A stretch of DNA of 64,000 nucleotides, taken from a virus. A program made the translations under genes and the position numbers. Position 1 is the stretch's first letter. Each line of letters starts with the position of its first letter. Location: positions 1 to 64,000 of IMG/VR virus record IMGVR_UViG_3300043353_000042; one strand, 5' to 3'. Shown in pieces: positions 2,648 to 47,824 of this stretch. The notes under the pieces were generated by a model. That model was not told where the DNA came from and did no database searches. It worked only from the letters and a program-made list of their open reading frames with translations.

Positions 2648-3065
2648 CGGCGTGTTCGATATGTTGCAAAAGTACGTGCTTCCGCACTGGCCGTTCGTGT
2701 TCATGTCGTTCGCGCTCGGCACGATTGGGCAGTTTTTCAAGAAGCAGGTTTGGACGCTCGACCGTGCGATCAAAGACGGCAAGTTTTGGGCGTTCATGCA
2801 CAGCACGCTCGGCATTCACGCGCCTGTTGTCGGCGCGCTCGCGGGCGCGCTCGGGATGCCAGCGTCGCCGGGCGTGAATGGCTGGCTTGCCCGGGCCCTG
2901 TATCACTTCGTCGCGGGCGCCATGGCGGCGTGGACGGTCGCAGCGTTCAAGCACTTCATGGCGTCGCGCGGCATCGTGCTTGCCGAGTCGATGGTGCCGC
3001 CGCCAAGGATCGATATCGACGAAAAGGCGCTGCCCGTTCCGCCGCCCCCTGCAGGTCGGCCATGA
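2640..3065 (+). CDS. membrane protein, holin candidate
   Basis: 141 aa with three hydrophobic helices (WPFVFMSFALGTIGQFF, APVVGALAGALGM, FVAGAMAAWTVAAF). Start overlaps the previous stop. Confidence 0.4.
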   Translation: MDDGVFDMLQKYVLPHWPFVFMSFALGTIGQFFKKQVWTLDRAIKDGKFWAFMHSTLGIHAPVVGALAGALGMPASPGVNGWLARALYHFVAGAMAAWTVAAFKHFMASRGIVLAESMVPPPRIDIDEKALPVPPPPAGRP

Positions 3066-3996: not shown

Positions 3997-5475
3997 TTGC
4001 CTGTGGCCGTCAAGCTGACCATCTCGAACCGGTTCGTGCACGTGGACGGCGTCGACCTAAAGACGCTGCGCGCGCTCGACGCGGCGTGCTCCTACCGCGT
4101 GGCGGGCTACTGGTTTTCCCCCGCCTACAAGTCGCGGCGATGGGACGGCAAAGAGCACCTTTTCAAGTTCACGCAGAAGAAGGGCTATCACGCGCCGGCT
4201 GGCATGGCCGAAGACATCGCGCGCGTGCTCAAGAAGCGCGGCGTCGACTACCGCGTGAAGTTCGAGACGGGCTTCCACAGCGAGCGCCAGCGCTTCACGT
4301 GGTCGAAGTCGGTCGAGCTCCGGGACTACCAGCGCGAAGCCGTGCGCGGGCTCCTGACCGGTGTCGTGCCCGGGCGTGGCGTGCTGAAGATGCCGATCCG
4401 TTCAGGGAAGACCAAGGTGGTCGCGCGCGCTTTGTACGAGATCGGACGACGCGCGCTCTTCGTCGTGCCGTCTCGGTGGCTTCTGCATCAGACGATCGCG
4501 AGCTTGCACGAGTGCATGCCTGACGCACCGATCGGTCAGATCGGTGACGGCGTGTACGACGTGCAGTTCTTCACGGTCGCGACGATCCAGACGCTCGCGA
4601 CGATGGCGCCTGTGCGTAAGACGGCGCGCAAAGCAGGGCGCGAAGCGCATCCCGACTACGCGACGCTGATGACGAGCTTCGACGTCGGCGTGTTCGACGA
4701 AGCGCATCACGTGCGCGGTGAAGGCGATTGGTATCGCGTCTTCGTCGACCTCGACGCGCGCTTCAAGATTGGCGTGTCGGCAACGGTGTTCTTCGACAAC
4801 ACCAAAGAGCAAGAGTCAGGGATCATCTGGCTGCGCGGTACGTGCGGCGGCATTCGCTACGAGGTGTCGGCCTCGCGGCTGATCAAGGCGGGCTACTTGC
4901 TTCCGCAGCACGTGAAGATGTTCCGCGTGCACGAACCTGACGACGTGCGCAGCGCGCGCTACAGCGCGACGCTCAAGAAGAAGTGCATCACGGAGAACGC
5001 GCATCGCAACGTCATGATCGCGCGCATCGTGCGCGACTACGCGCCGCGTAAGACCATCATCATCGCGCGCGAGCACGCGCACATCAAAGCGATCTGCGAC
5101 GCGCTCGAAGAGCTCGACGTGCGCTTCAGGGTGCTGACTGGCAAGACGCCACACGATCAGCGCATGGACTACGTCGACGAGTTCACGGGCAAGGGCGACC
5201 TGCACGTGCTCGTCGGCAACGTGCTCGGTGAAGGCGTCGACATCCCGGACGTCGAGATCGTCGTGAACGCGGAAGGCGGCAAGGACGAAAAGCAGACGTG
5301 GCAGCGCCAGCGCAATCTGACAATCGTCGAAGGCAGCACGAAGGTTCCCGAGCTCGTCGACTTCTACGACTGCATGTCGAGCGTCTTCGAGAAGCACAGC
5401 AAGGCCCGGCTGAAGGTGTACCGGTCGGAGTCGGAGTTCAGCGCAGAGGTGCTCGAATGTTCCGCCGACGATTAG
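3997..5475 (+). CDS. superfamily-2 DEAD/DEAH-type helicase (type III restriction Res-like)
   Basis: Walker A PIRSGKTKV, motif II FDEAHH, motif III SAT, C-terminal helicase block VLVGNVLGEGVDIPDVEIVV. TTG start. Confidence 0.85.
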   Translation: MPVAVKLTISNRFVHVDGVDLKTLRALDAACSYRVAGYWFSPAYKSRRWDGKEHLFKFTQKKGYHAPAGMAEDIARVLKKRGVDYRVKFETGFHSERQRFTWSKSVELRDYQREAVRGLLTGVVPGRGVLKMPIRSGKTKVVARALYEIGRRALFVVPSRWLLHQTIASLHECMPDAPIGQIGDGVYDVQFFTVATIQTLATMAPVRKTARKAGREAHPDYATLMTSFDVGVFDEAHHVRGEGDWYRVFVDLDARFKIGVSATVFFDNTKEQESGIIWLRGTCGGIRYEVSASRLIKAGYLLPQHVKMFRVHEPDDVRSARYSATLKKKCITENAHRNVMIARIVRDYAPRKTIIIAREHAHIKAICDALEELDVRFRVLTGKTPHDQRMDYVDEFTGKGDLHVLVGNVLGEGVDIPDVEIVVNAEGGKDEKQTWQRQRNLTIVEGSTKVPELVDFYDCMSSVFEKHSKARLKVYRSESEFSAEVLECSADD

Positions 5476-6947
5476 GCAAGAAGGTCGACCGCAAAGAGCG
5501 CAAGAAGGCCGCGCCGGAGCAATACCCGGACGAAGGCCCGTGCCCGCTCGCCGAAGCTTACGGGCAGCTGTCACGGCCTGCGTTCGCTATTTGGATCCGC
5601 ATGTCGGTCGCGCCACGGGCCGAGCTACGCATCGGCCGGGCGAAGCTGTCGCGCTTGCTCGGCTACTCGCGCCGTCAAGGTGACGAGCTCTTGCGCGAGC
5701 TCGAACGCAAGGGCTTCGTGACGTTCATTGCACACGGTCCGTACCGTCGCACGGTGGTCGTGATCACCCGCAAGCCGCTCTTGGAACAGGGTCACAGTTT
5801 CACACGGTTTTCCGCGCTTCTGTTCTCGCCCATTTCAGAGATGCATTTTCGAGAACTGGGATCGCGGAAATCCATGTCGGTGGATCCTCCTAACAGCCAT
5901 GGTTTTATACGTGGGTTCACATCGTTACCCAAAAAAGTCAGTCAGTTACCAGAAAAGTTCACACAGTTACCCGTTTCGCCACGCACTTACCAATGCCCGA
6001 TCGAGTCACTTCATAAATCCATGGCTCCTGACGCTGCGCGCAGAACAGAAACCGGGGTGAAAATGGTCGCTTCAACGCCACGTGTAAAGCGCCGCAAGTT
6101 TGTAGCCGAAGACCGCTATTTCGACGAATCACTTGCGTATAGAGATCTAATTGGATCTATAAGATCTGAAGAATTAGAGAGAAGACGATTACTACGAAGT
6201 AGTAATCGCGCAAGACGCGATGTCCGCAACGCGGCGAACCGTGCCCGGGGAATCGAAGTGCTCGATTGGAACGACCTCGATGTCGTGACGTTCGATCCTC
6301 GACGCTCGAAGCATCGGCTCATGTGCACCTTGCTCGCTCGCAAGCCCCGGGATCCGGAACGGGCGGCGCTCGTGAAGCGACTCGAAACAGAGTTCTGCAG
6401 GCTGTACACGCGCTACCGACGTGCGGCCGAGCGAGCGAGCGGGCGCCCGGTGGTCACTTACGAGGTGACGAAGAAAGAGCGCAAGTATGCGGCGGCGGCC
6501 GGGGCCCTGTGCGTGCAGCGAGGCGTCACACCGCGTCAGCTCATGGAGTTTTGGCATGCGAACCTGAAGCACTTCAGGCGCGCGGCGAACATGCAGGTGC
6601 CGACGCTTTCGTTTTTGTCGGGCCCTGCGAACATCGACACCGTTGCGTGCGGGCTCGTGCTTGACGAGACTGCGCCCGGTGGAGCTCGCATCGGGACGAG
6701 TGATCCGGAAGACAACGGCGCGCGACCAAAGGCCGGCAACAGCTTCAGCGACACGACTCGGCTGGACGCTCGTTTGCGAAAAGGACTCGAAGGGGCCGGA
6801 TTTTCCACGCGCGAGCTGAATGATCGGTACCTGCTGACCGTGCAGAAGAACGCGCTCGGGATTGCCAACGGTCGGGACATATTCATCGGCAAGGGGTCCT
6901 TGCGCGATATGTCTCTGTGGGCAGCGAGAACCCTGTATGCGAAGTGA
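5457..6947 (+). CDS. replication initiator candidate with winged-helix N-terminal domain
   Basis: ATG at 5457 inside ORF 5298..6947. MarR-like LGYSRRQGDELLRELERKGFVTFI. Contains three direct iterons and an AT-rich patch. Lies between helicase and loader genes. Confidence 0.5.
   Translation: MFRRRLGKKVDRKERKKAAPEQYPDEGPCPLAEAYGQLSRPAFAIWIRMSVAPRAELRIGRAKLSRLLGYSRRQGDELLRELERKGFVTFIAHGPYRRTVVVITRKPLLEQGHSFTRFSALLFSPISEMHFRELGSRKSMSVDPPNSHGFIRGFTSLPKKVSQLPEKFTQLPVSPRTYQCPIESLHKSMAPDAARRTETGVKMVASTPRVKRRKFVAEDRYFDESLAYRDLIGSIRSEELERRRLLRSSNRARRDVRNAANRARGIEVLDWNDLDVVTFDPRRSKHRLMCTLLARKPRDPERAALVKRLETEFCRLYTRYRRAAERASGRPVVTYEVTKKERKYAAAAGALCVQRGVTPRQLMEFWHANLKHFRRAANMQVPTLSFLSGPANIDTVACGLVLDETAPGGARIGTSDPEDNGARPKAGNSFSDTTRLDARLRKGLEGAGFSTRELNDRYLLTVQKNALGIANGRDIFIGKGSLRDMSLWAARTLYAK
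5915..5972 (+). repeat. three direct iteron copies inside the initiator gene
   Basis: GTTCACATCGTTACCC (5915), GTCAGTCAGTTACC (5937), GTTCACACAGTTACCC (5957), spaced 20-22 bp. Degenerate copy AGTTTCACACGGTTTTCC near 5800. Confidence 0.75.
6120..6215. other. AT-rich patch with AGATCT repeats, a DNA-unwinding element candidate
   Basis: TATAGAGATCTAATTGGATCTATAAGATCTGAAGAATTAGAGAGAAG stands out from GC-rich surroundings, ~150 bp downstream of the intragenic iterons. Confidence 0.4.
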
Positions 6948-7635
6948 GGTCGAGTGCGATGCGTTTGCGACAGTCACGATCGAACAGCTTGGCGAGGATG
7001 ATCCGCGCTGTCTCTATCGCGTGGCTTGCTACGAGGCGTGCGTGCCGCGCACGTTTTGGGGCGTGGTCGGCAACGATGTCACGTACAACGAAAGTGTCTT
7101 CCGCTCGATCGTGGTGCGCTACAGGCGCCGGCTCAAGCGTGCATTGCGAAGCGGCTACTCGCTTCTGTTCGTCGGCGACAACGGCGTCGGCAAGACGATG
7201 TTCATGTCGTACCTGCTCACGCAAGCGCTCAAGCGCGGATTCACCGCGTACTACACCACGCTTACGCAGCTCGACGCGGACATCAAGCGCGGGTTTCGCG
7301 ATCGCGAGGCAGACCTTCGCTTGCAAGCCATGCTCGAAAGCGACTTCGTTGCGATCGACGAAGTCGGCAAAGAGAGATTCAAGCCCGACAGCTTCACGAC
7401 GTCGCAGTTTGAGTCGTTTCTCAAGAGGCGCTACGACGACGGCGAGCCTGTGCTTCTTGGCTCGAACGCGGCGCATGACGACCTATGCAAGATGTATGGC
7501 GCCACGATCGAGAGCATGATCGACGGGCGCTATCAGGTCGTGTCGCTCGAACCGGGCGACTGCAGGCGCGACCACAAGCGACAGATGAAGCAGGCCATGC
7601 GCTTCGGGGGCAAAATGACCAATGACCGAGCCTAG
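6937..7635 (+). CDS. DnaC/IstB-like AAA+ helicase loader
   Basis: Walker A GDNGVGKT and Walker B FVAIDEVG. ATG at 6937 overlaps the upstream stop. Confidence 0.7.
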   Translation: MRSEVECDAFATVTIEQLGEDDPRCLYRVACYEACVPRTFWGVVGNDVTYNESVFRSIVVRYRRRLKRALRSGYSLLFVGDNGVGKTMFMSYLLTQALKRGFTAYYTTLTQLDADIKRGFRDREADLRLQAMLESDFVAIDEVGKERFKPDSFTTSQFESFLKRRYDDGEPVLLGSNAAHDDLCKMYGATIESMIDGRYQVVSLEPGDCRRDHKRQMKQAMRFGGKMTNDRA

Positions 7636-7855: not shown

Positions 7856-9295
7856 TTGGACTTCGATGCAGCCTACGAAGACGCCGTACTTGCGGAATCG
7901 CTGCGCGACGAAGCCTTCCTGAAGCGGGCGGCGCGTGTGTGCTCCGAGCACCATTTCGCGACCAAGGAACGTGCGTGGCTGTGGGGCGTCATTCACGCGA
8001 ACTGGACGAAGTACCACGAACGCACGTCGGGGAAGATCGTCGCGTCACGTGCGCGCCGGGACTTCGACAAGGCAGAGAAGCGCAAGCCCTACTTGCTACT
8101 GGCGCGCAAGGTGTTCCGGACGCGCTCGAAGAATCCGCAAGCCGTGCTCGAAGAGCTCGAACGCTTCGTGCGCCACGTGAATGTGCAGCTTGCGATCGAA
8201 GAGTCGGCGACGCTCTTAGAGAAGGGCAAGATCGACGACGCCGAACTGGCCATAGCAAAGGCCTCGCGTTCGGTCGCGCGTACGCGCGCGTACACGCACA
8301 TTCGGTGGATCGAAGAGTTCCCGGAGCGACAGGCGCAGCGCAAGTACGAGCGCGAACATCCTGACGAGTTCACCACGATCCCGCTCGGGTTCCCTCGGAT
8401 CGATAAGACGCTTTCAGGCGGCGGGCGCAAGGGCGAGCTCGCGCTTATCATGGGCACGACGGGCCGGGGCAAGTCGATCTTCCTGACGAACAGCGCACAG
8501 GCGTGTGTCGCGCGTGGCTACAAGGCGATCTATTTCGGCTTCGAGATGCCGGCACGACAGATCGCAGCGCGTCAAGACTCACGTTGGACGGGCCTGCAAT
8601 ACTCGAAGTTCAAGGGTTACGACTTCAAGCCGAGCGAGCTGCGCACCGTGCGCAGGCGCCTGAAGAAGGCTCGAAAGCAGTTTCGTAACCGGCTGCACAT
8701 CGTGTCGATGCCCGTGCGCAGCGCGACGATTCAGGACGTGCGCAACGCGATCGAAGACCTGCGACAGGATCACGGGTTCGAGGCCGATGCGATCTTCTTG
8801 GACAGCGCCGATCACCTGCGCGCGCTCGACACCTACGGTGGCAACTTTCGATTGCAGCAAGCCGAAGTGTATTGGGCCGCGAAGGAGCTCGCCGAAGAAG
8901 ACGGCTACTTCGTCATGAGCTCGACACACGCCGGGCGTGAATGGGCGACCAAGGTGGCGACGGCAGAAGCGTCGAGCGAGGCATACGACAAGAGCCGAAT
9001 CGCGGACATGGTCATGTCGATCAACGACCCGGCCGAGATGAAGCGCAAGGGCCGCAAGACGGTACTTGCAGACGATGACGACGACTTCGAAGACGACGGC
9101 GACGAGATCGGCGAGCCCACCGTCAAGGAAGGCGCGAGGCTGATGGAGCTGTATCTAGGAAAATATCGCGACGGCGACTCGCGTTTCAAAGTGAACGTCG
9201 AGTGCGACTTCGCCTGCATGACGATGAAAGAAGTCAAGGAAGGCGACGCCCATGATGACGACAGCGACGACAGCGACGGCAAAGACGAGAAGTGA
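7856..9295 (+). CDS. DnaB-like replicative helicase with acidic C-terminal tail
   Basis: Walker A GELALIMGTTGRGKS and Walker B-like AIFLDSADHL. DnaB-N-like N-terminus. C-terminus DDDDDFEDDGDE...DDSDDSDGKDEK. Confidence 0.75.
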   Translation: MDFDAAYEDAVLAESLRDEAFLKRAARVCSEHHFATKERAWLWGVIHANWTKYHERTSGKIVASRARRDFDKAEKRKPYLLLARKVFRTRSKNPQAVLEELERFVRHVNVQLAIEESATLLEKGKIDDAELAIAKASRSVARTRAYTHIRWIEEFPERQAQRKYEREHPDEFTTIPLGFPRIDKTLSGGGRKGELALIMGTTGRGKSIFLTNSAQACVARGYKAIYFGFEMPARQIAARQDSRWTGLQYSKFKGYDFKPSELRTVRRRLKKARKQFRNRLHIVSMPVRSATIQDVRNAIEDLRQDHGFEADAIFLDSADHLRALDTYGGNFRLQQAEVYWAAKELAEEDGYFVMSSTHAGREWATKVATAEASSEAYDKSRIADMVMSINDPAEMKRKGRKTVLADDDDDFEDDGDEIGEPTVKEGARLMELYLGKYRDGDSRFKVNVECDFACMTMKEVKEGDAHDDDSDDSDGKDEK

Positions 9296-10097
9296 CATTG
9301 GTGACAGATGGGCATGCGCTTCTGATTGGCTCGCGACAAGCGGGTCGCCTTGGCTCGTGTTTCTGTGCGACGCGTTCGAGGCGATGAAGCTCATGCCTGA
9401 CGGCGTGGTCGACCTCGTCGTGACCGACCCGCCCTATGCCTCGCTCGAAAAGTACCGAGACAGCAAGGCGCGCATTCGCAAGTACGAGCGAGAGAAGGCC
9501 GCGGGCACGCTCACGGGCACGCGCATACCGCGCCTGCGCGAGTGGTTCCCCATCATGCCGAATGAACGCTTCCCGGAGCTCTTAGCCGAGCTCTATCGCG
9601 TGATGGCGCCGGACTCTCACTGCTACATTTTCTGCGACGACGAAACGAGCGACGTGATCAAGGCCGCATGCGTCGCGATGGCGGCCGAGCGTGGCGACAA
9701 AGGCGCTTTCACATGGTGGAAGCGCATCGTGTGGGACAAGCTTCACCGCGGGCAGGGCTACCACTATCCGAATCAACACGAGTTCGTCGTGTTCCTCGAA
9801 AAGGGCAAGCGCAAGCTCACTGGCCACAGTCACACGTCGGTGCTCGCGTGCAAGCGCGTGTCGAAGGGCTCGCTCGGTGGTCGCTTGCCGGGCCCGACCG
9901 AGAAGCCGGTCAGTCTGATCGCGAAGCTGATCGAAAACAGCTCGAAGCCCGACGAGCTCGTCTTCGATCCGTTCTGTGGTCGAGGTGCCACGGGTGTCGC
10001 GGCGCTCTTCGCCAAGCGACAGTTTCTAGGGCTCGACGTGCAGCGCAAGGCCGTGCGGATCTCGCGTGGGCGCCTACGCCACGTCGAAGCCGCGTAA
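9252..10097 (+). CDS. DNA N6-adenine/N4-cytosine methyltransferase (beta class)
   Basis: Motif IV VVTDPPYAS precedes motif I FDPFCGRGATG. Start ambiguous (ATG 9252 or in-frame GTG 9357). Confidence 0.85.
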   Translation: MMTTATTATAKTRSDIGDRWACASDWLATSGSPWLVFLCDAFEAMKLMPDGVVDLVVTDPPYASLEKYRDSKARIRKYEREKAAGTLTGTRIPRLREWFPIMPNERFPELLAELYRVMAPDSHCYIFCDDETSDVIKAACVAMAAERGDKGAFTWWKRIVWDKLHRGQGYHYPNQHEFVVFLEKGKRKLTGHSHTSVLACKRVSKGSLGGRLPGPTEKPVSLIAKLIENSSKPDELVFDPFCGRGATGVAALFAKRQFLGLDVQRKAVRISRGRLRHVEAA

Positions 10098-10116
10098 GCG
10101 AGAGGGCGAGGGCAGA

Positions 10117-10269
10117 ATGAGCACAGACCAACTACCCGAGATTCTTCCGCGAGAACGGCGCCGCCGAACGCGTACGCCGCTCGACGCTGTCGCAGCTCGA
10201 AAGCGCAAGGTGAAGTCTCGAGAGGCAGCGAAGGCCGCGCACGCCTCGCGCAAGAAGCAGCGGCGCTGA
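10117..10269 (+). CDS. small highly basic protein
   Basis: 50 aa, Arg/Lys-rich. GAGGGCGAGGG Shine-Dalgarno-like stretch precedes the ATG at 10117. Confidence 0.4.
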   Translation: MSTDQLPEILPRERRRRTRTPLDAVAARKRKVKSREAAKAAHASRKKQRR

Positions 10270-10270
10270 A

Positions 10271-11317
10271 GTGCGCTTCGACATCGAAGACTATGTGAAC
10301 GCGAATCTAACGAACGCGAAAGCCGTTCAAGCGGGCAACGGCAACGAGATGACCGCTGTGTGCCCGGCTTGCGACCGATACGGCGGATTCTACATCAACA
10401 CCGAAACGGGCGCCTTCGTGTGTTGGAAGTGCGACTTTCGTGCGCACACGGTCGTAGGGCTCGTCGCGCAGGTCGAGGATATTTCGTGGTCCGAGGCGCG
10501 CGGATTCATCTTCACGCGCTCGGTCAAGCTCCGGCGCAAGCAAGACGTGTTCTCGCTGGCCGATCGCGTGCGCGCGCTTCGGCCACACGCGATCGTCGAA
10601 GATGAAGACGAGCCCAATGTCAATGTGGAGCTGCCCGAATACTACGTGCAGATCTACGACCCGAAGCGCGACCCGGAGTGGCAGCTTCCCCGGTACCTGA
10701 AAGAACGTGGCGTGAAGCCGCGCACGGCGCGCGCGTGGGGCCTTGGGTACTGCCGCAAGGGCAGGTATGGCGACCGGCTGGTCATCCCCATCGACTGCCC
10801 GGCTGGCGTCTCCTGGACGGCGCGCGCCATGTCCGACGACGTCTTCGGGCCGAAGTACCTCAATCCGCCCGGGGCCGACCATCGGCGCTTGCTGATCGGC
10901 TGGCACGTGTCGCGCGTGACGGGCGACATCGTGCTGTGCGAAGGGCCGCTCGACGCGGTGCGCCTGTACCAGCACGACCTGCCTGCGCTGGCGCTCGGTG
11001 GCAAGGAACTGCACGACGAACAGCTGTCGATGCTCCGGGCGCTACCTGCCAAGGCCGCGGTGACGATCATGCTCGACCCCGAAGAAGAAGTCGCGCCCTA
11101 TAAACTGGCCGAGCGGCTGTCGTTGCACTTCGAAAGCATCTACATCGCCAAGCTTCCGAAGAAGACCGCCGACGGCAAGAAGCTCGACCCCGGGGAGTCG
11201 ACGCGCGCGCAAGCCCACACGGCCGTGGACGACGCAGTTCAGTGGAGGTCTTCGCGCGGCTCGCGAGTTGCGGCGATTGTCCGACAAGCCGGAAAAACTT
11301 GGCGAAAAAGGCTGTGA
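10271..11317 (+). CDS. DNA primase (zinc ribbon plus TOPRIM)
   Basis: CPACDRYGGFYINTETGAFVCWKCDF zinc ribbon. TOPRIM-like IVLCEGPLDAVRL and IMLDPEEE. Confidence 0.75.
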   Translation: MRFDIEDYVNANLTNAKAVQAGNGNEMTAVCPACDRYGGFYINTETGAFVCWKCDFRAHTVVGLVAQVEDISWSEARGFIFTRSVKLRRKQDVFSLADRVRALRPHAIVEDEDEPNVNVELPEYYVQIYDPKRDPEWQLPRYLKERGVKPRTARAWGLGYCRKGRYGDRLVIPIDCPAGVSWTARAMSDDVFGPKYLNPPGADHRRLLIGWHVSRVTGDIVLCEGPLDAVRLYQHDLPALALGGKELHDEQLSMLRALPAKAAVTIMLDPEEEVAPYKLAERLSLHFESIYIAKLPKKTADGKKLDPGESTRAQAHTAVDDAVQWRSSRGSRVAAIVRQAGKTWRKRL

Positions 11318-11326
11318 GTTGAAGGA

Positions 11327-11346
11327 CTATCGGCGGTTTCCGATAG
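11327..11346 (+). terminator. hairpin after the primase gene
   Basis: CTATCGG-CGGTTT-CCGATAG: 7-bp stem, 6-nt loop, no clear T-tract. Confidence 0.3.
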
Positions 11347-11410
11347 ATGACCTCACGCGCGTACACGATTCAAGACATAGTGAAAATGCCTATGCGTGTA
11401 TCTTGCATTT

Positions 11411-11450
11411 CAGCACGTGTTGAAGCGACTAGGTATTCTCCTATATTGTA
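11411..11450 (+). promoter_or_regulatory. partial promoter-cassette motif (P0) ahead of the AAA+/VWA/sigma operon
   Basis: CAGCACGTGTTGAAGCGACTAGGTATTCTCCTATATT shares the GTTGAAGCGA core (11419-11428). -10 register unclear. Sits in an AT-richer 210-bp gap. Confidence 0.3.
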
Positions 11451-11529
11451 GGGGAAGCACCCAGACGCTTGACCCTCATGTGGCGATTGCGTTATCACGC
11501 GGCCCCCTCTTGAGAGATCGGCCGACACC

Positions 11530-17049: not shown

Positions 17050-17350
17050 CGAGCTGCGTCGATGGGCGCGCGGTGAGACGGTTGAGGGGCTTCCACCGAT
17101 CGCGCCGCGTAAGGAGGTCGAGCGCCCGAAGCTCGACCCTACGGGCCGGCTAAGCCGCAAGTACAAGCTGAATGCGGACGCGACCGACGCGCTCTTGCAG
17201 TTCGGCGCGTTTCGCGGGCAAGCGCTGTCGGTGCTCGTTGCCACGGCGCGCGGGCGCAAGTACCTCGCTTGGATCCTCGATAGGGATTTCGACGACGACC
17301 TGAAGTCAGTGTGTCGGTACCAAATGGAGCTACACAAGCGTGTCACATAA
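17036..17350 (+). CDS. hypothetical protein
   Basis: 104-aa ORF overlapping both neighbours. FGAFRGQALS...GRKYLAWIL weakly resembles small domains found near exonuclease/polymerase genes. Confidence 0.4.
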   Translation: MPTLDELRRWARGETVEGLPPIAPRKEVERPKLDPTGRLSRKYKLNADATDALLQFGAFRGQALSVLVATARGRKYLAWILDRDFDDDLKSVCRYQMELHKRVT

Positions 17351-20300
17351 GACCGAAGACTTCGTTCACCTGCACACGCACTCGGACATGTCACAGCTCG
17401 ACGGCTGCGGACGAATCGGCGACTACGTGAAGGTGGCCAAGGCGCGCGGGAATCCGGCGCTTGCGTTCACCGAACACGGGTCGATGCGCGGCTACTTGCA
17501 GCTGCGCAAGGAGGCCGAGAAGCACGAGATCAAACCGATCTACGGAATCGAGTTCTACGTTAGTCGCGACATGCACCGAAAGGGCCTGACCGACGACGAG
17601 AAAAAGACGCTTCTGACAGGGGTGAAGAAGAACGATCGGCGCACGACGCAGCGCGCGTACGAAGAGCGCGAGGGCATTCGCGATCGCTGGCACACGACGT
17701 GTTGGGCGCTCACGCAAGAAGGCATGCTGAACCTGCAGCGGCTGTCGAGCGCAGCCTATGTCGAAGGGTTCTACTACAAGCCGCGGGTCGACCTCGACGC
17801 GCTGTGTCGCTACAACGAGGGGCTTGCGATATCGACCGGCTGTCTGAACGGACCGGCGCACGACGGCTTCTTGCAGGGTCGAAGGCGCGACGCGATCAAC
17901 TTCGTCGACCGCTTGCGCGAAGCCTACGGCGACCGCCTCTATCACGAGATTCAGCCGCACGCGATCGCCGATCAGGCGCGCGTGAACGAGTTCGAGCTGA
18001 CGCTTCGTGAGCGCACGGGCGGCAAGCTTCTCGCCACGCAAGACGCGCACTATGTGAACCCCGAAGACGCCGACGCACACGACCTGCTTTTGTGTATCGG
18101 CACGGGCGCGAAGGTGAGCGACGTCGACCGCTTCCGGTTTGACGGCGACGAATTCTATTTTCGAACACGGGCGCAAATGCGCGACGCCTTCATCCGACAC
18201 CACGGCTACCTGCGAAAGTCGCACATCAGGGAAGCGCTCGACTCGACGATCGAGCTCGCTGAACGCAGCGACGTCAAGATCGAGATCGACTACATGCGGG
18301 CGCTTCTGCCAACGCCCGGCATGCCGAAGAAGTACGACGGGGACGAGTTCGCCTTCTTGAAAGACATTTGCCTCGATGGCTGGACGTGGCGCGGCATCCC
18401 TGCACGCGCTCGCTCATACGCGTACAAGCACGGCATCGGCGCGGGCGATGCGCTCGGACGCTATGCGACGCGGCTGAAGACCGAGCTCACGGCACTGAAG
18501 CGCCAGCGCTTGATTCTGTATTTTCTCGTCGTGCGCGACCTGTACGCGTTCGCGCGCAAAGAACAGATCTTCTGTGGGCCGGGTCGCGGAAGCGCGGGCG
18601 GGTCGCTCGTCGCTTACTTGCTCGGCATCACATCGATCGATCCGATCGAGCATGGCCTTCTGTTCGAGCGCTTCATCAATCCGGATCGCCACGACCTGCC
18701 CGACATCGATATGGACTTCGAAGACTCGCGACGTCGCGAGGTGATCGACTACCTCGTCGGCAAATACGGCAAGGACAAGGTGTGTCAGATCGCGACGGTC
18801 GGCCGGCTGTCCGGCAAGAGCGTCTTGCGCGACGTGTCGCGCGTGCTCGGTGTGCCGTTGCCCGAAGTGAATGCGATCAGCCCATCGATCCTCGAACGGC
18901 CGGACGGGCACCCGCGCGAATACAACACGCTCGAAGACTCGTTCAACGAGTTCGACGCATGCAAAGCGTTCGACAAGCGCTTCCCGAAGGTCCGCAAGTT
19001 CGCCTCGAAGCTCGAAGGCATGGCGAAGACGCTCGGTATCCATGCCGCGGGCGTCGTCGTCAGTCCGACAACGTTGACCGATTTGATCCCGCTCGAAATC
19101 CGTAAGCACAAGGGCGAAGACATCATCGTCAGCGCGATCGACATGAACGAGATCGCATCGGTCGGGCTCGTGAAGCTCGACGTGCTCGGCTTGCGCACGC
19201 TGACCGTGATCCGCGATTGCGTCAACGCAGTGAAGGAACGACACGAAGTCGCGCTCGACATGGAGCGGATCGAGATGAACGATCCGAAGGTGCTCGAACG
19301 TTTCACGGGGCACGACTTCGCGGGCGTGTTTCAGTACGACACCCCATCGGCGTACAAAATATGTGCCGACGTGATCTTCGAAGACTTCGAAGACATCGCA
19401 GCCATGACAGCGCTGAACCGCCCGGGCGCGACGCGGTCTGGCTTGGCCGAGCGCTACCTCGTTCGCAAGAAGGACGCGAGCAAGCGCGACGAGGTCGACT
19501 TTCACCCGATCATCAACGCGATCTGTGCCGACACGCTCGGTGTCATTGTCTATCAGGAGCACGTGATCAAGATCTTCACGGAGCTCGCCGGCTTCTCGCC
19601 CGGTGTCGCTGACGGGCTGCGTAAGGCCATCGGCAAGAAGAAGGCAGAAGAGCTCAAGGCCGCGCGTGTCGACTTCGTAGCGGGCTGCGAGAAGCTGCAC
19701 GGCATAGCGCCGAAGGTCGCGAACAAGATCTTCGGAGCGATCGAAGCGTTCGGCGCATACGGCTTCAACAAGAGCCATGCCACGGCGTACGCGACGATCG
19801 CGTATTGGTGCCAGTTCTTGAAGGTCTACTATCCGACCGAATTTTACTGGGCGCTCCTGCGCAACGAACCCGATCGCGCGCACCTGAAGGCGCTCGCTAA
19901 AGAGGCCAAGCGGGCAGGCATGCAGATCCTGAACCCGCACGTATCGTTCAGCCGTGACGTGTTCTCAATCGATCCGGACGGCAACATTCGCGGGTCGCTC
20001 GTCGACATCAAGGGCGTCGGCAAGGGCGCCGCTGCGACGGTCATGCAGTGTCAGCCGTTCAAGAGCTTTCTCGACTTCGCGCAACGGGTCGATCGGCGCC
20101 GCTGCAATCGCGGCGTGGTCGTCGTGCTGATCAAGGCGGGCGCGTTCGAGGGCTTGATCCCGAATCAGAAGTTTTTCGAAGAACACCTCGACGAGCTGTG
20201 GCGCTCGCTCACCAAGAAGCGCGCACGACGCGAAGCGATCTACGACTTTTGGGCGCGCGCGAAGGAGGCCGAAGACTACACGGCCGAAGAGCGCATGCTC

Positions 20301-21155
20301 GTCGCGGCGAAGGTCAATCCGCTCGCGTTCGGCGAGCACCCGCTCGACGCGTACCGCGAGTTCATGGCCGACCATGTCGGCGTCGAGCTGACGCGCATCG
20401 ACGCGCAGTCGATGGCAGAGCTCGACGGGGAATCGGTGTACGTGGCCGGGCTACTACTCGACGCGCGCGTGCAACAGATCGGTGACTTCCACACGGGTGA
20501 CTTGCCGACCGAGCTCGAACGCAAGCGCATGTTTTGGGGCGCGCGCTATGCCAACGTGAACTTGGAGTGTGACAGCGGCGAGAACTTTCGCGTGCGCTTC
20601 GACTTCGACATCTTCGAGGCGCATCGCGAGCTGATCGAAGCCGACTCGGGTACGCCAATCATCGTGCACGCGACGGTCGACGCGAAGTACAACCGGCTGA
20701 AAGCGCACTTCGCGATTGACCTCGAACGCTACCGCGTGGCTGCGCGCGCTGGCGAGCAAAGCGACTTCTGGAATCGCATCGTCGCGGGCGAGCATCCTGC
20801 GCGCGACTACCCGTGGCCGACACCCGAGCTCGCCAAGAAGCGCCGTTTCAATGGCCGGCTACTGCGCTCCGGAACGGGCATGTTCACGGGCATCGTGACG
20901 CACGTGCGGCGCAAGTTTGACGTGCGCGGTGAAGAGATGGCTTTTTTCGGCCTTTTGGGCGAGCGGGGATTCGTCAACGTGATCTCGTTTGCCTCGCAGT
21001 GGCATGCGATCCGCAAGATCGTGAAGCGAGGTCGCATGCTTACGATGCCGCTTGATAAGTCGACGGATTCCGAAAGAGGAATAGCGTTTTTCTTCAACGG
21101 CGGAAAAGTTCGGCACTTGAAAAAACATTCAGCGGACTGGGCGCCAAGCCCGTAG
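17340..21155 (+). CDS. dnaE: DNA polymerase III alpha subunit
   Basis: 1271 aa. PHP domain FVHLHTHSDMSQLDG. Palm/fingers blocks GPGRGSAGGSLVAYLLGIT, PDIDMDF, LVKLDVLGLRTL, YGFNKSHATAYA. Confidence 0.95.
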   Translation: MSHKTEDFVHLHTHSDMSQLDGCGRIGDYVKVAKARGNPALAFTEHGSMRGYLQLRKEAEKHEIKPIYGIEFYVSRDMHRKGLTDDEKKTLLTGVKKNDRRTTQRAYEEREGIRDRWHTTCWALTQEGMLNLQRLSSAAYVEGFYYKPRVDLDALCRYNEGLAISTGCLNGPAHDGFLQGRRRDAINFVDRLREAYGDRLYHEIQPHAIADQARVNEFELTLRERTGGKLLATQDAHYVNPEDADAHDLLLCIGTGAKVSDVDRFRFDGDEFYFRTRAQMRDAFIRHHGYLRKSHIREALDSTIELAERSDVKIEIDYMRALLPTPGMPKKYDGDEFAFLKDICLDGWTWRGIPARARSYAYKHGIGAGDALGRYATRLKTELTALKRQRLILYFLVVRDLYAFARKEQIFCGPGRGSAGGSLVAYLLGITSIDPIEHGLLFERFINPDRHDLPDIDMDFEDSRRREVIDYLVGKYGKDKVCQIATVGRLSGKSVLRDVSRVLGVPLPEVNAISPSILERPDGHPREYNTLEDSFNEFDACKAFDKRFPKVRKFASKLEGMAKTLGIHAAGVVVSPTTLTDLIPLEIRKHKGEDIIVSAIDMNEIASVGLVKLDVLGLRTLTVIRDCVNAVKERHEVALDMERIEMNDPKVLERFTGHDFAGVFQYDTPSAYKICADVIFEDFEDIAAMTALNRPGATRSGLAERYLVRKKDASKRDEVDFHPIINAICADTLGVIVYQEHVIKIFTELAGFSPGVADGLRKAIGKKKAEELKAARVDFVAGCEKLHGIAPKVANKIFGAIEAFGAYGFNKSHATAYATIAYWCQFLKVYYPTEFYWALLRNEPDRAHLKALAKEAKRAGMQILNPHVSFSRDVFSIDPDGNIRGSLVDIKGVGKGAAATVMQCQPFKSFLDFAQRVDRRRCNRGVVVVLIKAGAFEGLIPNQKFFEEHLDELWRSLTKKRARREAIYDFWARAKEAEDYTAEERMLVAAKVNPLAFGEHPLDAYREFMADHVGVELTRIDAQSMAELDGESVYVAGLLLDARVQQIGDFHTGDLPTELERKRMFWGARYANVNLECDSGENFRVRFDFDIFEAHRELIEADSGTPIIVHATVDAKYNRLKAHFAIDLERYRVAARAGEQSDFWNRIVAGEHPARDYPWPTPELAKKRRFNGRLLRSGTGMFTGIVTHVRRKFDVRGEEMAFFGLLGERGFVNVISFASQWHAIRKIVKRGRMLTMPLDKSTDSERGIAFFFNGGKVRHLKKHSADWAPSP

Positions 21156-33321: not shown

Positions 33322-33337
33322 AGGCCGCCAAGATGGT

Positions 33338-33355
33338 CGGGTAAGTGTGTGAACG
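33338..33355 (-). repeat. isolated iteron copy upstream of parB-like gene 1
   Basis: CGGGTAAGTGTGTGAACG, same variant as 47750-47766. Half-site CGTTCACACACTG at about 33524. Confidence 0.6.
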
Positions 33356-33780: not shown

Positions 33781-34623
33781 ATGTCTGTGAAGCGTGGGAC
33801 CTTGTTTAGGTTCGATCCGGACGAGCTTATCGTCATCGGACTCGATACAAAGGACGGCCCGGAGCACGAATTGTGGGATGAACGGATTCATCTTCCGCTT
33901 GAAGAGTCGATGGTGATGAACATCATGACGTTTGGCGTGAAAGAGACGGTCACACTCCGTAAGGGGTCAAAGGGATACGAGGTCGTCAATGGTCGGCGTC
34001 GTGTTCTTCACGCTCGCGAGGCGAATAAGCGCCTCAAGAAGACGGGCGAACCACGTGTGCGCGTCCCTGCGACCGTCGAGTCGGGCGACGAAATGCACAT
34101 GGAAAAGCTCACAATTTCGCTAAATGAGATTCGGCGCGACGACGACACGCTCACAAAGGCCGAGAAGTGCATGCGACTGCTTCATCGCAACGGCGGAGAC
34201 TACAAGGACGCAGCCCTCGTCTTCGGAGTGTCGGTCGCGGCGATCAAGAATTGGGCCAAGGTCGCCGAGCTAACTCCGAAGGTGAAGAAGGCCGTAGCGG
34301 CGGGCGAGATAAGTGCTTCGGCGGCGGCGGAGCTTCACGGGCTCGATAAGGACGACCAGATCGCCAAGCTTGACAAGCTCGTCGGCAACGCCAAGGCAAG
34401 CGGACGGAAGAAGACCACGGTATCGAAGGTCAAAAAGGAGACGGGCCATCGGGTCACCGTGTCGAAGCGCGTGCTGTTGAAGATTGTCACCGATCAACAG
34501 CTGGCGACGAGCGTTCATGCAGAGATGCTCTCTGGGATAAAGCTCGCGCTGGGCGTGTACGTCCCGCCCGAGACAACGAAGCTCGGAAAGCTCCTGATAC
34601 AGGCGGGATTCAAGTACGACTGA
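33781..34623 (+). CDS. ParB/KorB-like DNA-binding protein, paralog 1
   Basis: ParB N-terminal arginine patch VVNGRRRVLHAREA. HTH-like VFGVSVAAIKNWAK. Confidence 0.75.
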   Translation: MSVKRGTLFRFDPDELIVIGLDTKDGPEHELWDERIHLPLEESMVMNIMTFGVKETVTLRKGSKGYEVVNGRRRVLHAREANKRLKKTGEPRVRVPATVESGDEMHMEKLTISLNEIRRDDDTLTKAEKCMRLLHRNGGDYKDAALVFGVSVAAIKNWAKVAELTPKVKKAVAAGEISASAAAELHGLDKDDQIAKLDKLVGNAKASGRKKTTVSKVKKETGHRVTVSKRVLLKIVTDQQLATSVHAEMLSGIKLALGVYVPPETTKLGKLLIQAGFKYD

Positions 34624-35999: not shown

Positions 36000-36133
36000 A
36001 CCAAAGCAGACCAACCGCGGAAAGTTTCTTCCGAGTCTGGCTTGCGAAATCTCGATCTTCGGGCCATCGATAAGCCTTGTGGCGCGTAACCTAGCCCGCA
36101 CACACGATGGAAGAACCCGAGGAGTCGGTAATC

Positions 36134-36994
36134 ATGGCAGCTGCAATTATGCCGGTAAAACGTGGAAATCTGTATCAGTTCGATCCCAACGAGCCAGTGA
36201 TTGTCGGACTCGACACAAAGGACGGGCCCGAACACGAGCTTTGGGACGAGCGGATCCGGCTGCCGCTCGAAGAATCCATGGTGCTAAACATCATGGCGGT
36301 CGGCGTCAAAGAGACTGTGATCTTGCGCCTCAACAAGGGGGCCTCGCGTTACGAGGTCGTCGACGGCCGTGGTCGCATTCGCCACGCTCGCGAGGCGAAT
36401 AAGCGCCTAAAGAAGCTAGGCGAAGAGCTCGTGTATGTGCCGGCGCTTCTCGAACAGGGCGACGAAACGCACATGGCCGGGCTCGCGATCTCGCTGAATG
36501 AGATTCGACGCGACGACGACACGCTCACAAAGGCCGAGAAGTGCATGCGGCTCTTGCAGCGCAATGGCGGCGATCACAAGGCCGCGGCGATCGTCTTCGG
36601 CGTGTCGGTCGCGGCGATCAAGAATTGGGCCAAGGTTGCCGAGCTGACGCCGAAGGTCAAGCGAGCGGTCGCGAACGGCGAGATCAGCGCGTCAGCGGCG
36701 GCCGAGCTGCACGGACTCGAAAAGGAGGCGCAGATCGCCAAGCTCGATAAGCTCGTCGGGCACGCCAAGGCGAACGGGCGCAAGAAGGCGACCACGGCGA
36801 GCGCGAAGAAGGAGACGGGCAAGCGTACCGCGGTGCCGAAGCGCGTCTTGCTGAAGCTCGTAGGCGACGAAGAGCTGTCTTCGGGCGTGCCGCCTGAAGT
36901 CATTTTCGGGATCAAGCTCGCGCTCGGCTCACACCTGCCCGGGGAAACGTCGAAACTTGGAAAGTTGCTTGTGCAGGCGGGTTTCAAATACTAG
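36134..36994 (+). CDS. ParB/KorB-like DNA-binding protein, paralog 2
   Basis: Largely collinear with paralog 1, with long identical DNA stretches. Arginine patch altered to VVDGRGRIRHAREA. GGAG lies 8 nt before ATG 36134. Confidence 0.75.
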   Translation: MAAAIMPVKRGNLYQFDPNEPVIVGLDTKDGPEHELWDERIRLPLEESMVLNIMAVGVKETVILRLNKGASRYEVVDGRGRIRHAREANKRLKKLGEELVYVPALLEQGDETHMAGLAISLNEIRRDDDTLTKAEKCMRLLQRNGGDHKAAAIVFGVSVAAIKNWAKVAELTPKVKRAVANGEISASAAAELHGLEKEAQIAKLDKLVGHAKANGRKKATTASAKKETGKRTAVPKRVLLKLVGDEELSSGVPPEVIFGIKLALGSHLPGETSKLGKLLVQAGFKY

Positions 36995-45062: not shown

Positions 45063-45300
45063 GTGCGCCTCGTCGTGAAGCTCGCAAAAGTGACTTTCAG
45101 ACGTACCCCGGCGCACACGGCTTCGCTGACGCGCACTGACGGCTTCAGGCCGGTCGAGCCCGACGGATCGGCGCCTTCGCACGGGCCCTAGTGAGTGCAG
45201 GCGCTACGCAGGCGCCCGGGCGCGCGCATGGGCCTTCGCGGTCGATTGGGCGTCGCGTTTTCGTTGCTCGTCGCGACGATTCGGGCGAAAAGCATCTTTG

Positions 45301-45552
45301 ATGAAGCTGGACGACCTACGCGCGCGCCTCCGCGCGGACAAGCGCGCGATCACGAAGCCCAAAGAGCGGCCGAAGCCGAAGCGCCGTTACCGGTGCAGCA
45401 AGTGTCGCAAGCCGCGCGAGCCTGCGAACCTGACCGATCCCGATGTCGCGGAAATCATCAGGGAATCGAGCGGCACGCGTCCGACGCATGCCTACCGGTG
45501 TCGCGAGTGTCGGATCATTTGGCTCGCTTGTCCGGTGGTCGGTGCGAAATGA
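45301..45552 (+). CDS. MKL(D/E)(D/E)LR zinc-ribbon paralog 1
   Basis: MKLDDLRARL..., CSKC...CREC. Confidence 0.5.
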   Translation: MKLDDLRARLRADKRAITKPKERPKPKRRYRCSKCRKPREPANLTDPDVAEIIRESSGTRPTHAYRCRECRIIWLACPVVGAK

Positions 45553-45833
45553 AGCTCGAAGAACTTCGCCAGCGCCTGCGAGAACCGAAGCGCCGGAAGC
45601 CGGTCCCGAAGCTACGCAAGCGCCGGAAGCGCGCCGCTGCGAGTCCCCCGCAGCCGCCAATGCACCAAAACTGCCGATCGAGCGCTACGCCGCTCACTGC
45701 GAGCAAGAATCCGCGCGATTGGCTTACGAAAACGCTCGTCGCGCTGTGCGACAAGTGCGGCAAGTCGTTCACGCCCGATCTCAAGGTCGGCTACGTGCCC
45801 TCGACGTGCGCGAAGTGCGCGTCGTATCTGTGA
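45549..45833 (+). CDS. MKLEELR zinc-ribbon paralog 2
   Basis: ATGA overlap with paralog 1. CDKC...CAKC. Confidence 0.5.
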   Translation: MKLEELRQRLREPKRRKPVPKLRKRRKRAAASPPQPPMHQNCRSSATPLTASKNPRDWLTKTLVALCDKCGKSFTPDLKVGYVPSTCAKCASYL

Positions 45834-45841
45834 GGTGCGAA

Positions 45842-46210
45842 ATGAAGCTCGAAGACCTCCGCAAGCTGTACGAAGCGCCCGAACTGCCGAAACAGCCGAA
45901 AATGGAGGCGATCACAGGAACCGACCTCGCACATGGCCCGGACAGTGCCGCAATGATGCTTCGGTGCATAGAGTGCGACCTCGTGATGACGATCACGGAT
46001 CCTGCGAGCCCGACGCTTGTCCGCGCCCACTGTCCTAGATGCGACACAGGCTGCAGCATGTGCAAGCGGCTACGCGACGCTGACGGCAACACGCTCCGGA
46101 TACGCGCAACAGGCACCGAGAAGCGTAGGGTGTGTGACCAGTGTAGCTACGACTACTACGACATCCTAGCTGACCGTTTCACGTCGGTGAAAATCGGCGA
46201 TGAAGCTTGA
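45842..46210 (+). CDS. MKLEDLR zinc-ribbon paralog 3
   Basis: CIEC...CPRC...CSMC...CDQCSYDYYDILADRF. Confidence 0.5.
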   Translation: MKLEDLRKLYEAPELPKQPKMEAITGTDLAHGPDSAAMMLRCIECDLVMTITDPASPTLVRAHCPRCDTGCSMCKRLRDADGNTLRIRATGTEKRRVCDQCSYDYYDILADRFTSVKIGDEA

Positions 46211-46640
46211 AGACCTTCGCGCGCTGTTTTTCGACCACGATCTAGACGACGACCCGCAAGTGGAGGGGCAGGGGCCGCTTTGCGTGTGCTGTCGGCGGAC
46301 CACGACCGACATGCTCGAACATCCGAGGCACGGAGCGACATGCCTGCCTTGTCGCGAGCACTGCTACGACATCCTTGCTGACCGCTTCGATCACGTCGAG
46401 GTCACCGAAGCGCTCATATCCGCTTCGACGTGCGAGCGCTGTGGGCACAGCCTACGCCTACGCATGCGCAAAAGCTCCGGGTTCCGACATCGTTGTGGTC
46501 GAGCCGTGTGCGTGTTTCACAACGTAGGCAAAATCTCGCCCATATCACACGCGCTGCGGAAGTCGTTTTCGGTCACGCACTTTCCCGCATGGAATACTAG
46601 CGGTTCACGTACTTACCCGCGGCCCCAAACCACACCCTAA
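46200..46640 (+). CDS. MKLEDLR zinc-ribbon paralog 4
   Basis: CVCC...CLPCREHCYDILADRF...CERC. The 3' end runs into the first iteron (46602), so the true stop or function of the tail is uncertain. Confidence 0.4.
   Translation: MKLEDLRALFFDHDLDDDPQVEGQGPLCVCCRRTTTDMLEHPRHGATCLPCREHCYDILADRFDHVEVTEALISASTCERCGHSLRLRMRKSSGFRHRCGRAVCVFHNVGKISPISHALRKSFSVTHFPAWNTSGSRTYPRPQTTP
46602..46619 (+). repeat. iteron copy (variant)
   Basis: GGTTCACGTACTTACCCG. Confidence 0.6.
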
Positions 46641-47227
46641 AGAGCGGACCTCACCGAATGCATGTCAGCATGCGGAAAGGCAAAGATGCTTAGGCGCTTC
46701 CCCGCAAGTGGAGGGGATTGGCCCAACACAGGTCAGAACGTACCCCCTAGCAACACAGCCAAATCATGTCCCACACACGTACAGTATGCATAAGAGCCAT
46801 TTCGGAAACGCACACGCAAGCGCACCCATGAAGGCCCTAATCCGCCAGAACAACCCTATCAAGCAGATTCCCGAGCACCACATACAGTAAGAGGGTAAGC
46901 GTGCTCGTCTGTCCCCCTGTACATGCACACGCGCTAGCGTATGCAACGCCATGCATCTATGGGCAATGCGTCAGCGCTATCAGCCCGGTTGCGATAGTGT
47001 ATCCGTGCCTGCATGCGTGGGCGTGCGCGCGCGCGTATGTATAGGGGCCATGCTGAACTGTTTGAGTGTGCACACCGAGCAATGGCCACGGATTCGCGAA
47101 CGTGCACACGCCCGGTCACTGCGCCTTCACTTCGCCCGCCTCGCCCCCCGCGGCACCGGCCTCTTGCCCCGCCCTGCCTTCCCCGCCACAGACCGATGGC
47201 TCCGGACAGCAGGGCTGACCTGCCCAT

Positions 47228-47384
47228 CGGTCAGGTAGTTACCCTACCTCGTTCACATAGTTACCCGGTGCTGGGTAACTGTTAGAACGATAGCGGGTAA
47301 GTGTTAGACTAACAGTCAGGTAGTTACCCGGCCATGGTATGCACACGGGTAACTGTGTGAATGATGTCGGGTAACTGTATGACG
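47228..47384. repeat. iteron cluster A: 7 copies in mixed orientation
   Basis: Forward copies at 47228-44, 47250-68, 47314-31. Reverse copies at 47271-90, 47294-310, 47346-63, 47368-84. Copies 47250-68 and 47271-90 form a 41-bp imperfect palindrome. Confidence 0.85.
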
Positions 47385-47578: not shown

Positions 47579-47594
47579 CGGGTAACTGTTTGAC
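47579..47594 (-). repeat. iteron copy
   Basis: CGGGTAACTGTTTGAC. Confidence 0.7.
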
Positions 47595-47766: not shown

Positions 47767-47824
47767 CCTTCCGGACGCAATACCCTGGACAGCTCGGCAC
47801 GTCGACGGTTCGGTCAAGCAGGAC

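Follow-up and report, generated by a model that had tools for sequence, protein, structure and literature searches.

A candidate replication origin inside the putative initiator gene of an uncultured phage and a distant field of the same repeats

Could a phage gene for a replication initiator contain, within its own coding sequence, the origin at which its product acts? The question is raised by a locus in the IMG/VR virus record IMGVR_UViG_3300043353_000042, of which we analysed positions 1 to 64,000 (hereafter, the window). The window appears to be part of a large phage genome and has a mean GC content of 61.7% over its 64,000 nt; the record, which carries the candidate initiator protein, is 107,690 bp long. 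Within one open reading frame (ORF) of the window, short direct repeats (iterons) are followed by an AT-rich patch and a palindrome, and an earlier reading of the sequence by itself (the original prediction) likened this arrangement to the replication origin of phage lambda. As the most likely reading, we favour an origin at 5.9-6.2 kb, inside the gene for its own initiator, with a distant field of the same motif serving as a second binding region for the same protein. The elements at the gene are the following.

5457 to 6947, plus strand: candidate initiator (replisome-organiser) gene, 496 amino acids (aa), delineated by homologues, domain alignment and an AlphaFold model
5797 to 5816, plus strand: degenerate outlying iteron-like copy GTTTCACACGGTTTTCCGCG, 5.3 bits, conserved in relatives
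5914 to 5995, plus strand: four direct iterons starting at 5914, 5935, 5956 and 5976, with the core (A/C)(G/C)TTACC, defined by weight matrix and codon conservation
6111 to 6185, no strand assigned: AT-rich patch, a candidate DNA-unwinding element, recognised by the lowest GC content of the 64-kb window and by codon conservation
6186 to 6208, no strand assigned: perfect palindrome CGATTACTAC-GAA-GTAGTAATCG (10 bp, 3-nt centre), bordering the AT-rich patch on the right

The iteron motif in the gene is 18-20 bp long, and its four copies lie in phase at spacings of 21, 21 and 20 bp, that is, the roughly two helical turns that had been proposed, so that the copies fall on one face of the DNA. The exact sequence GTTCACAnnGTTACC occurs at 5915 and 5957, and with up to two mismatches it was found 14 times in the window, compared with 0.69 occurrences expected from shuffles. 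A weight matrix trained solely on the distant non-coding copies of the motif (see below) scores zero or higher at only 21 of the 64,000 plus-strand positions, and five of these are 5797 (5.3 bits), 5914 (15.0 bits), 5935 (1.9 bits), 5956 (26.0 bits) and 5976 (2.2 bits). The three iterons originally placed at 5915, 5937 and 5957 are thus all real, with the reservation that the copy at 5935-5937 is weak, and a fourth, at 5976, had been overlooked. The degenerate copy suspected near 5800 was recovered at 5797; its status is ambiguous because it sits in a conserved protein segment. The repetitive peptide attributed to the repeats is encoded as described (F-T-S-L-P-K-K-V-S-Q-L-P-E-K-F-T-Q-L-P). Together, these elements correspond to what characterises a generic iteron-type theta origin: at least three helically phased direct repeats, an AT-rich element and an initiator gene nearby. 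We also observed a 14-nt inverted repeat (5895-5908 and 6013-6026; 13 of 14 positions complementary) that brackets the four-iteron array and is loosely kept in relatives.

The codons in which these elements are written carry unusually clear dual-coding signatures, which show selection at the DNA level on the repeats, the AT-rich patch and the palindrome. Nineteen other genes of the phage served as the reference for codon usage; in these, TTA accounts for 1.2% of Leu codons and AGA for 1.5% of Arg codons. TTA encodes all three Leu residues at the repeat cores. At 6141-6209, a stretch of 23 codons, AGA is used four times, TTA, CTA and TCT two times each and ATA once, and only 2 of the 23 codons have G or C at the third position (GC3). 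When the same peptide was resampled with the codon usage of the phage, none of the 200,000 resulting sequences was as AT-rich as the observed one. In a codon alignment of ten sequences, comprising the window gene and nine relatives with ~60-86% protein identity, the core CA(G/C) TTA CCN is found at nearly every repeat position, the third repeat having TTG in two sequences, and the codons between the cores vary freely (for example, AAA AAA, GCT TCA, ACT TTG or ATT TCA). The fourth iteron copy, CG(C/A) ACT TAC CAA, is almost invariant, and the run AGA AGA CGA TTA CTA CGA AGT AGT AAT is conserved codon for codon. Synonymous codon identity reaches 0.73-0.82 in codons 124-205 and 232-261, compared with ~0.5-0.6 in most of the gene, and yet amino acid conservation is lowest in codons 124-205. 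Rare synonymous codons are therefore kept while the amino acids between the repeats change, so that it is the DNA rather than the peptide on which selection acts. The synonymous-site comparison across relatives that had been proposed as a check thus locates the constraint exactly at the repeats and at the AT-rich/palindrome segment.

The original prediction had noted the most AT-rich patch of the gene downstream of the iterons; this patch (6111-6200, with GATCT at 6144, 6154 and 6163) is in fact the most AT-rich of the entire window, whether measured in 40-mers or in 60-mers, with 30-33% GC. Across codons 221-250, GC3 is 0.05-0.15, compared with ~0.8 elsewhere. The palindrome at its right edge is present in nine of the ten close sequences, and TTA pairs with AGT in six of them and TTG with AGC in three (L214, L216 and L001). 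A second compensatory pair was found in L003; overall, 96.7% of the alignment cells are paired and two pairs show compensatory change. This covariation would fit a hairpin and a symmetric protein-binding site alike. As single-stranded DNA, the AT-rich/palindrome region folds better than shuffled sequences (z = -3.5). With regard to the GATCT motifs, the three copies lie 9-10 bp apart at 6144-6167, their GATC sites (three within 20 bp) are kept in relatives, and a gene for an N6/N4 methyltransferase (9252-10097) belongs to the same operon. We make no claim of methylation control through this cluster: GATC is common genome-wide (8.3 per kb), and other clusters exist.

Relatives are encoded at 15 IMG/VR loci on contigs of up to 116 kb, with GC contents from 35% to 62%. 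In close relatives, the window-derived matrix finds matches almost solely in the middle of the gene, with one to four copies ~21 bp apart in eight of the nine full-length genes, and the flanking 6-21 kb contain no further match except for one marginal site in L213. More distant lineages carry other repeats at the equivalent position in the gene, namely, TCACACACTTGCACGAATTCG four times at 21 bp in L004, a diverged form of the window motif; TCGGACTTTCCCAG four or five times with a 22-bp period in L005; a 15-bp GATC-containing unit five times in L009; and a 30-bp unit twice in L011. The original prediction had held that repeats lacking in homologous genes would speak against it. Close relatives keep them, and distant ones show lineage-specific replacement at the same place. 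Marked AT-rich troughs occur at the start of the C-terminal domain in most lineages (L001, L003, L004, L006, L009, L011, L013, L014, L015 and L217). The AT-rich patch and palindrome form the most conserved module of the locus: in L217 (62% identity), the repeats are degenerate, and both the AT-rich run and the palindrome are intact. In L006 (31% identity), a 10/11-bp hairpin of different sequence occupies the aligned position, just after an AT-rich repeat block with 7% GC; the hairpins listed for L009 and L010 were not placed on the alignment.

The repeat region also marks a boundary in the protein. In four relatives (L004, L010, L014 and L015), the gene is split there into an ORF for the N-terminal domain and an ORF for the C-terminal domain, and nine database homologues of ~300 aa consist of the C-terminal domain only. 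In L004 (38% GC), the four 21-bp repeats are precisely where the two ORFs (9995-10609 and 10486-11508), read in different frames, overlap; this could reflect a frameshift within the array, either real or due to an assembly error. The 37 homologues of the candidate initiator are all metagenomic and have neither names nor a Pfam family. Their alignment (A1) contains a conserved N-terminal domain from residue 1 to ~115, a hypervariable middle and a conserved C-terminal domain from residue ~205. Consistently with the N-terminal winged helix of the original prediction, the AlphaFold model contains a winged helix-turn-helix (HTH) at aa 28-110, with a predicted local distance difference test score (pLDDT) of 80-90. 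A linker predicted to be disordered follows at aa 112-215 (pLDDT ~30), corresponding to nt 5790-6101 and covering the repeats, and the C-terminal domain (aa 218-496) is modelled as all-alpha, with a pLDDT of 76 when modelled alone. Searches of the protein against Pfam (even at E<=1) and PHROG gave no match, and tblastn found no counterpart in INPHARED phages or PLSDB plasmids; with a sequence profile, the PDB yielded only winged-helix matches at E>0.1. A Foldseek search of the PDB with the N-terminal domain recovered, among its top matches, the N-terminal domains of staphylococcal RepA proteins (4pql, 4pt7 and 5kbj; E 0.18-0.4), mixed with MarR/ArsR regulators, whereas a fold search of the PDB with the isolated C-terminal domain model gave no meaningful match. 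The full model had weak HTH matches in a viral structure library, some of which are named RepA-like initiators.

The same motif recurs far from the gene, in one large field and at two single sites.

46570 to 47968, no strand assigned: non-coding field with ~15 motif copies in both orientations, between convergent genes and without an AT-rich patch
48515 to 48534, plus strand: single strong motif copy with a score of 33 bits, located 15 bp before the ATG start codon of the minus-strand gene 48090-48500
33336 to 33355, minus strand: single strong motif copy, 30 bits, intergenic, upstream of the ParB-like gene 33781-34623

In all, ~16 motif copies lie in 46570-48534, mostly in a 1.4-kb stretch without a credible ORF, 41 kb from the candidate initiator gene. 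Their spacing is partly 20-22 bp, and both direct and inverted pairs occur; the field lacks both an AT-rich patch, its GC minimum being 42-45%, and an independent palindrome. The field is syntenic and conserved, with at least 13 sites, in L191, which lies on the same contig as L003, and it is conserved in L202 as well. In the L005 lineage, with its TCGGACTTTCCCAG repeat, a near-copy of the four-repeat array is found in an intergenic position ~41 kb from the gene, matching the distance in the window. A search for a second array in the L001 lineage found none, and the contig of L004 stops short of the expected position. Across lineages, the repeat sequence shifts in step at both sites, which points to a single protein determining the specificity.

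Several further observations concern the field and its surroundings. It contains a conserved non-coding core (47398-47510) that corresponds to ~4555-4685 on the minus strand of L191 and to 88-220 of L202; this core is 79-87% identical to the relatives, the neighbouring genes being less conserved, with CCCCACTnGTGAGGGCTCCCT and TGATGGCGGACCCAACAAGCGGACGCT as standout blocks. A possible stem in the core shows a few compensatory pairs in just three sequences, and the core belongs to no Rfam family. In the L005 lineage, a short hairpin-forming unit precedes each array (L005 10373-10394, GACACgtttactGTGTC; L050 ~2794-2830, minus strand, GACACgaaagttGTGTC), with the stem kept and the loop differing. 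Directly upstream of the field, at 45298-46640 on the plus strand, lie four tandem small paralogues, each starting with MKLE(D/E)LR, in which pairs of CxxC motifs suggest zinc ribbons. On the other side, reading by eye revealed a likely unlisted 38-aa ORF, MSIDRLLLYAFLLWLVARDLASEPFEDRDDEDDDE, at 47985-48100 on the minus strand, at the end of a minus-strand operon, with a hydrophobic helix and an acidic tail. The single copy at 48515-48534 falls between two genes of an operon and could be a repression site for the motif-binding protein. The copy at 33336-33355 lies upstream of the first of two genes for paralogous ParB-like proteins with HTH_ParB and DUF7119 domains, encoded on the plus strand at 33781-34623 and 36107-36994. 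No ParA-like ATPase was detected among the window ORFs scanned.

The candidate initiator gene is embedded in a replication operon, and its ORF overlaps both neighbouring genes.

3997 to 5475, plus strand: superfamily 2 (SF2; ResIII/Helicase_C) helicase gene, assigned by Pfam/PHROG searches and synteny in relatives; its 3' end overlaps the start of the initiator gene
6937 to 7635, plus strand: IstB/DnaC-like helicase-loader gene, supported by gene calls in relatives, with an ATG that overlaps the initiator stop codon
7856 to 9295, plus strand: DnaB-like replicative helicase gene, assigned by Pfam/PHROG searches
9252 to 10097: N6/N4 DNA methyltransferase gene, between the DnaB-like helicase and primase genes
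10271 to 11317, plus strand: DnaG-like primase gene, assigned by Pfam/PHROG searches

The flanking helicase and DnaC-like genes of the original prediction can accordingly be specified as those for the SF2 helicase, the IstB/DnaC-like loader and the DnaB-like helicase. The order SF2 helicase, initiator gene, IstB-like loader, DnaB-like helicase and methylase is kept in the contigs of seven relatives, and the loader and helicase genes lie downstream of the initiator gene in every relative examined. The window also encodes a DnaE-type DNA polymerase III (Pol III) alpha subunit (17340-21155), CobS/CobT-like proteins, a UvsX-like recombinase and SbcCD, as well as a ligase, a 5'-3' exonuclease, a UDG-superfamily protein and a dCTP-deaminase-like protein. 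At the DNA level, only chance-level fragments are shared with known phages, and the best identity of Pol III alpha to known phages is only ~33%. Rfam and tRNA scans of the window yielded nothing at gathering score, and a relaxed threshold gave one chance-level match.

How might these parts work together? For the identity of the repeat binder, the unwinding, the recruitment of the helicase and the role of the distant field, we infer the following scheme. The 496-aa protein would bind the four iterons through its N-terminal winged helix, at sites lying in the DNA for its own disordered linker. The resulting nucleoprotein complex would destabilise the AT-rich segment 6111-6185, bounded by the conserved palindrome, and the all-alpha C-terminal domain would recruit the DnaC-like loader and the DnaB-like helicase encoded just downstream. 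After helicase loading, the phage primase and Pol III alpha are expected to take over. The initiator would also occupy the ~16-site distant field, which is devoid of an unwinding element and would most likely be a second, non-firing region; by analogy with SPP1 oriR, P4 crr and P1 incA, it might block forks, act as a sink for the initiator or have a regulatory role. A more tentative extension, to which we assign a rather low probability, is that the in-gene origin and the co-varying distant field constitute a single control circuit, in which the field would set the moment at which replication passes from the origin-dependent to the recombination-dependent mode, acting as an initiator sink, as a pairing partner or as a programmed barrier to forks. 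Such a circuit might involve the core 47398-47510 and the GATCT-rich unwinding element, the latter potentially readable by the phage methyltransferase.

A number of points weigh against an origin at 5.9-6.2 kb that is served by this protein. The proposed binding of the repeats by the candidate initiator draws on position and precedent; the fold matches are weak and of a generic winged-helix kind (E 0.003-1); and neither by sequence nor by profile is the protein significantly similar to lambda O, SPP1 G38P or RepA_N. Two of the four in-gene copies are strong and two are weak (~2 bits), the last iteron is separated from the AT-rich patch by a gap of ~115 bp, unlike the abutting lambda elements, and neither array of the L005 lineage is obviously accompanied by AT-rich DNA. 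No origin signal emerges from GC skew in the window, because skew tracks the direction of transcription. No DnaA box (TTATCCACA-like, with at most one mismatch) was found near the initiator gene; such boxes are present in many iteron origins, albeit not in all. Furthermore, the largest cluster of sites is the non-coding distant field, a classic location in which the real origin could lie, and another protein could be the binder, because there are two ParB-like HTH proteins, one with a motif copy upstream of its gene.

The last two points each lead to a different explanation. If the field at 46.6-48.0 kb were the true origin, the in-gene repeats would be secondary and would serve in autoregulation of the operon or in handcuffing. 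Its ~16 sites, compared with four in the gene, its non-coding location between convergent genes, its direct and inverted site pairs, as in plasmid origins and operators, its conservation in L191 and L202 and the two-array layout kept in the L005 lineage all agree with this, but we consider it unlikely. The field contains neither an AT-rich stretch nor an independent palindrome, whereas downstream of the in-gene array come the AT-richest segment of the window and a conserved palindrome, which are both under synonymous-site constraint, and this module is kept even in L217, with its degenerate repeats. It is less probable still that the 18-bp motif is bound by another protein, such as one of the ParB-like proteins (33781-34623 or 36107-36994), at centromere-like or silencing sites, the in-gene cluster being one of several dispersed loading sites. 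Dispersed sites together with one large cluster do resemble the dispersed centromere sites of some plasmid-prophages, and the ParB-like genes are there, the first with a strong motif copy upstream. However, the motif is asymmetric, not palindromic as parS-type sites are, and the ORFs scanned do not include a ParA partner, so that the locus does not have the makeup of a ParB/parS centromere; moreover, in lineages with different repeats the cluster still lies at the domain junction of the winged-helix protein, and two-turn phasing and an AT-rich neighbour are features of origins.

The AT-rich patch and palindrome could also act in transcription or as RNA, in the form of an internal promoter (driving either the loader and helicase genes or a product consisting of the C-terminal domain only), an antisense terminator or an mRNA hairpin, with the repeats as operators. 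That the C-terminal domain is a separate gene in some relatives, that the palindrome was flagged as terminator-like on the minus strand and that the region has a favourable single-stranded fold would suit this explanation, but a promoter scan found no sigma-70-like promoter within 5300-7000, the T-run after the hairpin is poor, and an origin accounts better for four helically phased direct repeats and an extremely AT-rich patch within a replication operon. As the main function of the segment, we regard this as slightly more improbable than a role of the ParB-like proteins, and it is not exclusive, because in lambda, transcription through the origin belongs to origin activation. Finally, the repeats might have no function as DNA, being a peptide repeat (FTxLP) in a low-complexity linker, with the AT-richness stemming from a mosaic junction or from a peptide rich in Lys, Arg and Glu. 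The linker is indeed variable and predicted to be disordered; however, ~16 copies of the same DNA motif, in either orientation, lie in non-coding DNA, rare synonymous codons have been retained where the inter-repeat amino acids have not, and GC3, a largely synonymous measure, falls to 0.05, so that this last explanation is strongly disfavoured and in practice excluded by the data.

If the origin indeed lies within the candidate initiator gene, a function and a DNA target can be proposed for an unnamed protein family that has no Pfam entry, solved structure, or cultured phage or plasmid relative, and that heads the replication module in a group of uncultured phages of roughly 100-116 kb. The 5.7-6.3-kb segment together with the gene would then be a candidate minimal replicon for a high-GC host.

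Which known systems does this layout resemble? Phage lambda has four iterons inside gene O, downstream of which lie an AT-rich tract and a palindrome of 28 bp, and P is the next gene (lambda record; PMC7466680). The locus in the window shares with it a set of four iterons, each about two turns of the helix from the next, in the central part of the initiator gene, within DNA coding for an inter-domain linker, then an AT-rich tract and a palindrome, and an overlapping helicase-loader gene immediately downstream. The order of iterons, AT-rich region and palindrome matches that of the lambda origin in the lambda record, as the original prediction had proposed, and every computational test able to refute the lambda-like reading favoured it. 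The resemblance to lambda O is one of architecture and not of detectable homology: the window protein has no match to Phage_rep_O (PF04492), to which lambda O itself scores 5.7e-36, and an hhalign comparison of the alignment A1 with lambda O gave a probability of 0.2%. In addition, the loader is IstB/DnaC-like and not lambda P, the phage has its own DnaB, primase and Pol III alpha, the iterons and AT-rich tract that abut in lambda are ~115 bp apart here, and lambda has no large second field of sites.

In phage SPP1, gp38 binds direct repeats at oriL, within gene 38, and at the distant intergenic oriR, and the gene is followed by those for the loader gp39 and the DnaB-type helicase gp40 (PMC6316719); according to a proposed model, theta replication gives way to the concatemeric mode when a fork collides with gp38 at oriR (PMC6316719, PMC3485210). 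Likewise, the phage studied here has repeats in the organiser gene and a distant second region, the gene order organiser, loader and DnaB-type helicase, and recombination functions of its own (UvsX-like, SbcCD). SPP1 is a closer analogue than lambda because the same motif forms a ~16-site field 41 kb away. The two systems differ in that hhalign against G38P gave a probability of 0.6% and G38P matches Phg_2220_C, which the window protein does not; in that oriR has an AT-rich element, whereas the distant field has none, and has many more sites, in both orientations; and in the ~107-kb genome with 62% GC of the window phage. The latter could thus become a second system, besides SPP1, for studying the role of a distant initiator-binding region.

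For the plasmid pSK41, the N-terminal winged-helix domain of Rep binds four boxes in the central part of rep; the linker that this part encodes is dispensable, and host replication proteins are recruited through the C-terminal domain (PMC5703833). An N-terminal winged helix, four repeats in the centre of the gene and a linker as the origin-encoded segment are common to this RepA_N protein and the candidate initiator. Unlike pSK41 Rep, the latter has no match to RepA_N (PF06970), its N-terminal domain matches RepA folds no better than those of MarR/ArsR regulators, its C-terminal domain has no structural match, and it comes from a phage, not a Firmicute plasmid.

A single initiator with two separated clusters of one repeat is also found in P4 (alpha, with ori and crr) and P1 (RepA, with oriR and incA), where the second cluster, besides that at the origin, is needed in cis or controls copy number. 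The distance between the clusters there is a few kb at most, compared with 41 kb here, and the proteins are different. The phage analysed here would add an independent case of an origin in the linker-coding DNA of its initiator, and this recurrence suggests that such a layout arises repeatedly. The arrangement itself is well known; its novelty here lies in the protein family, in the phage group and in how large the second site is and what form it takes.

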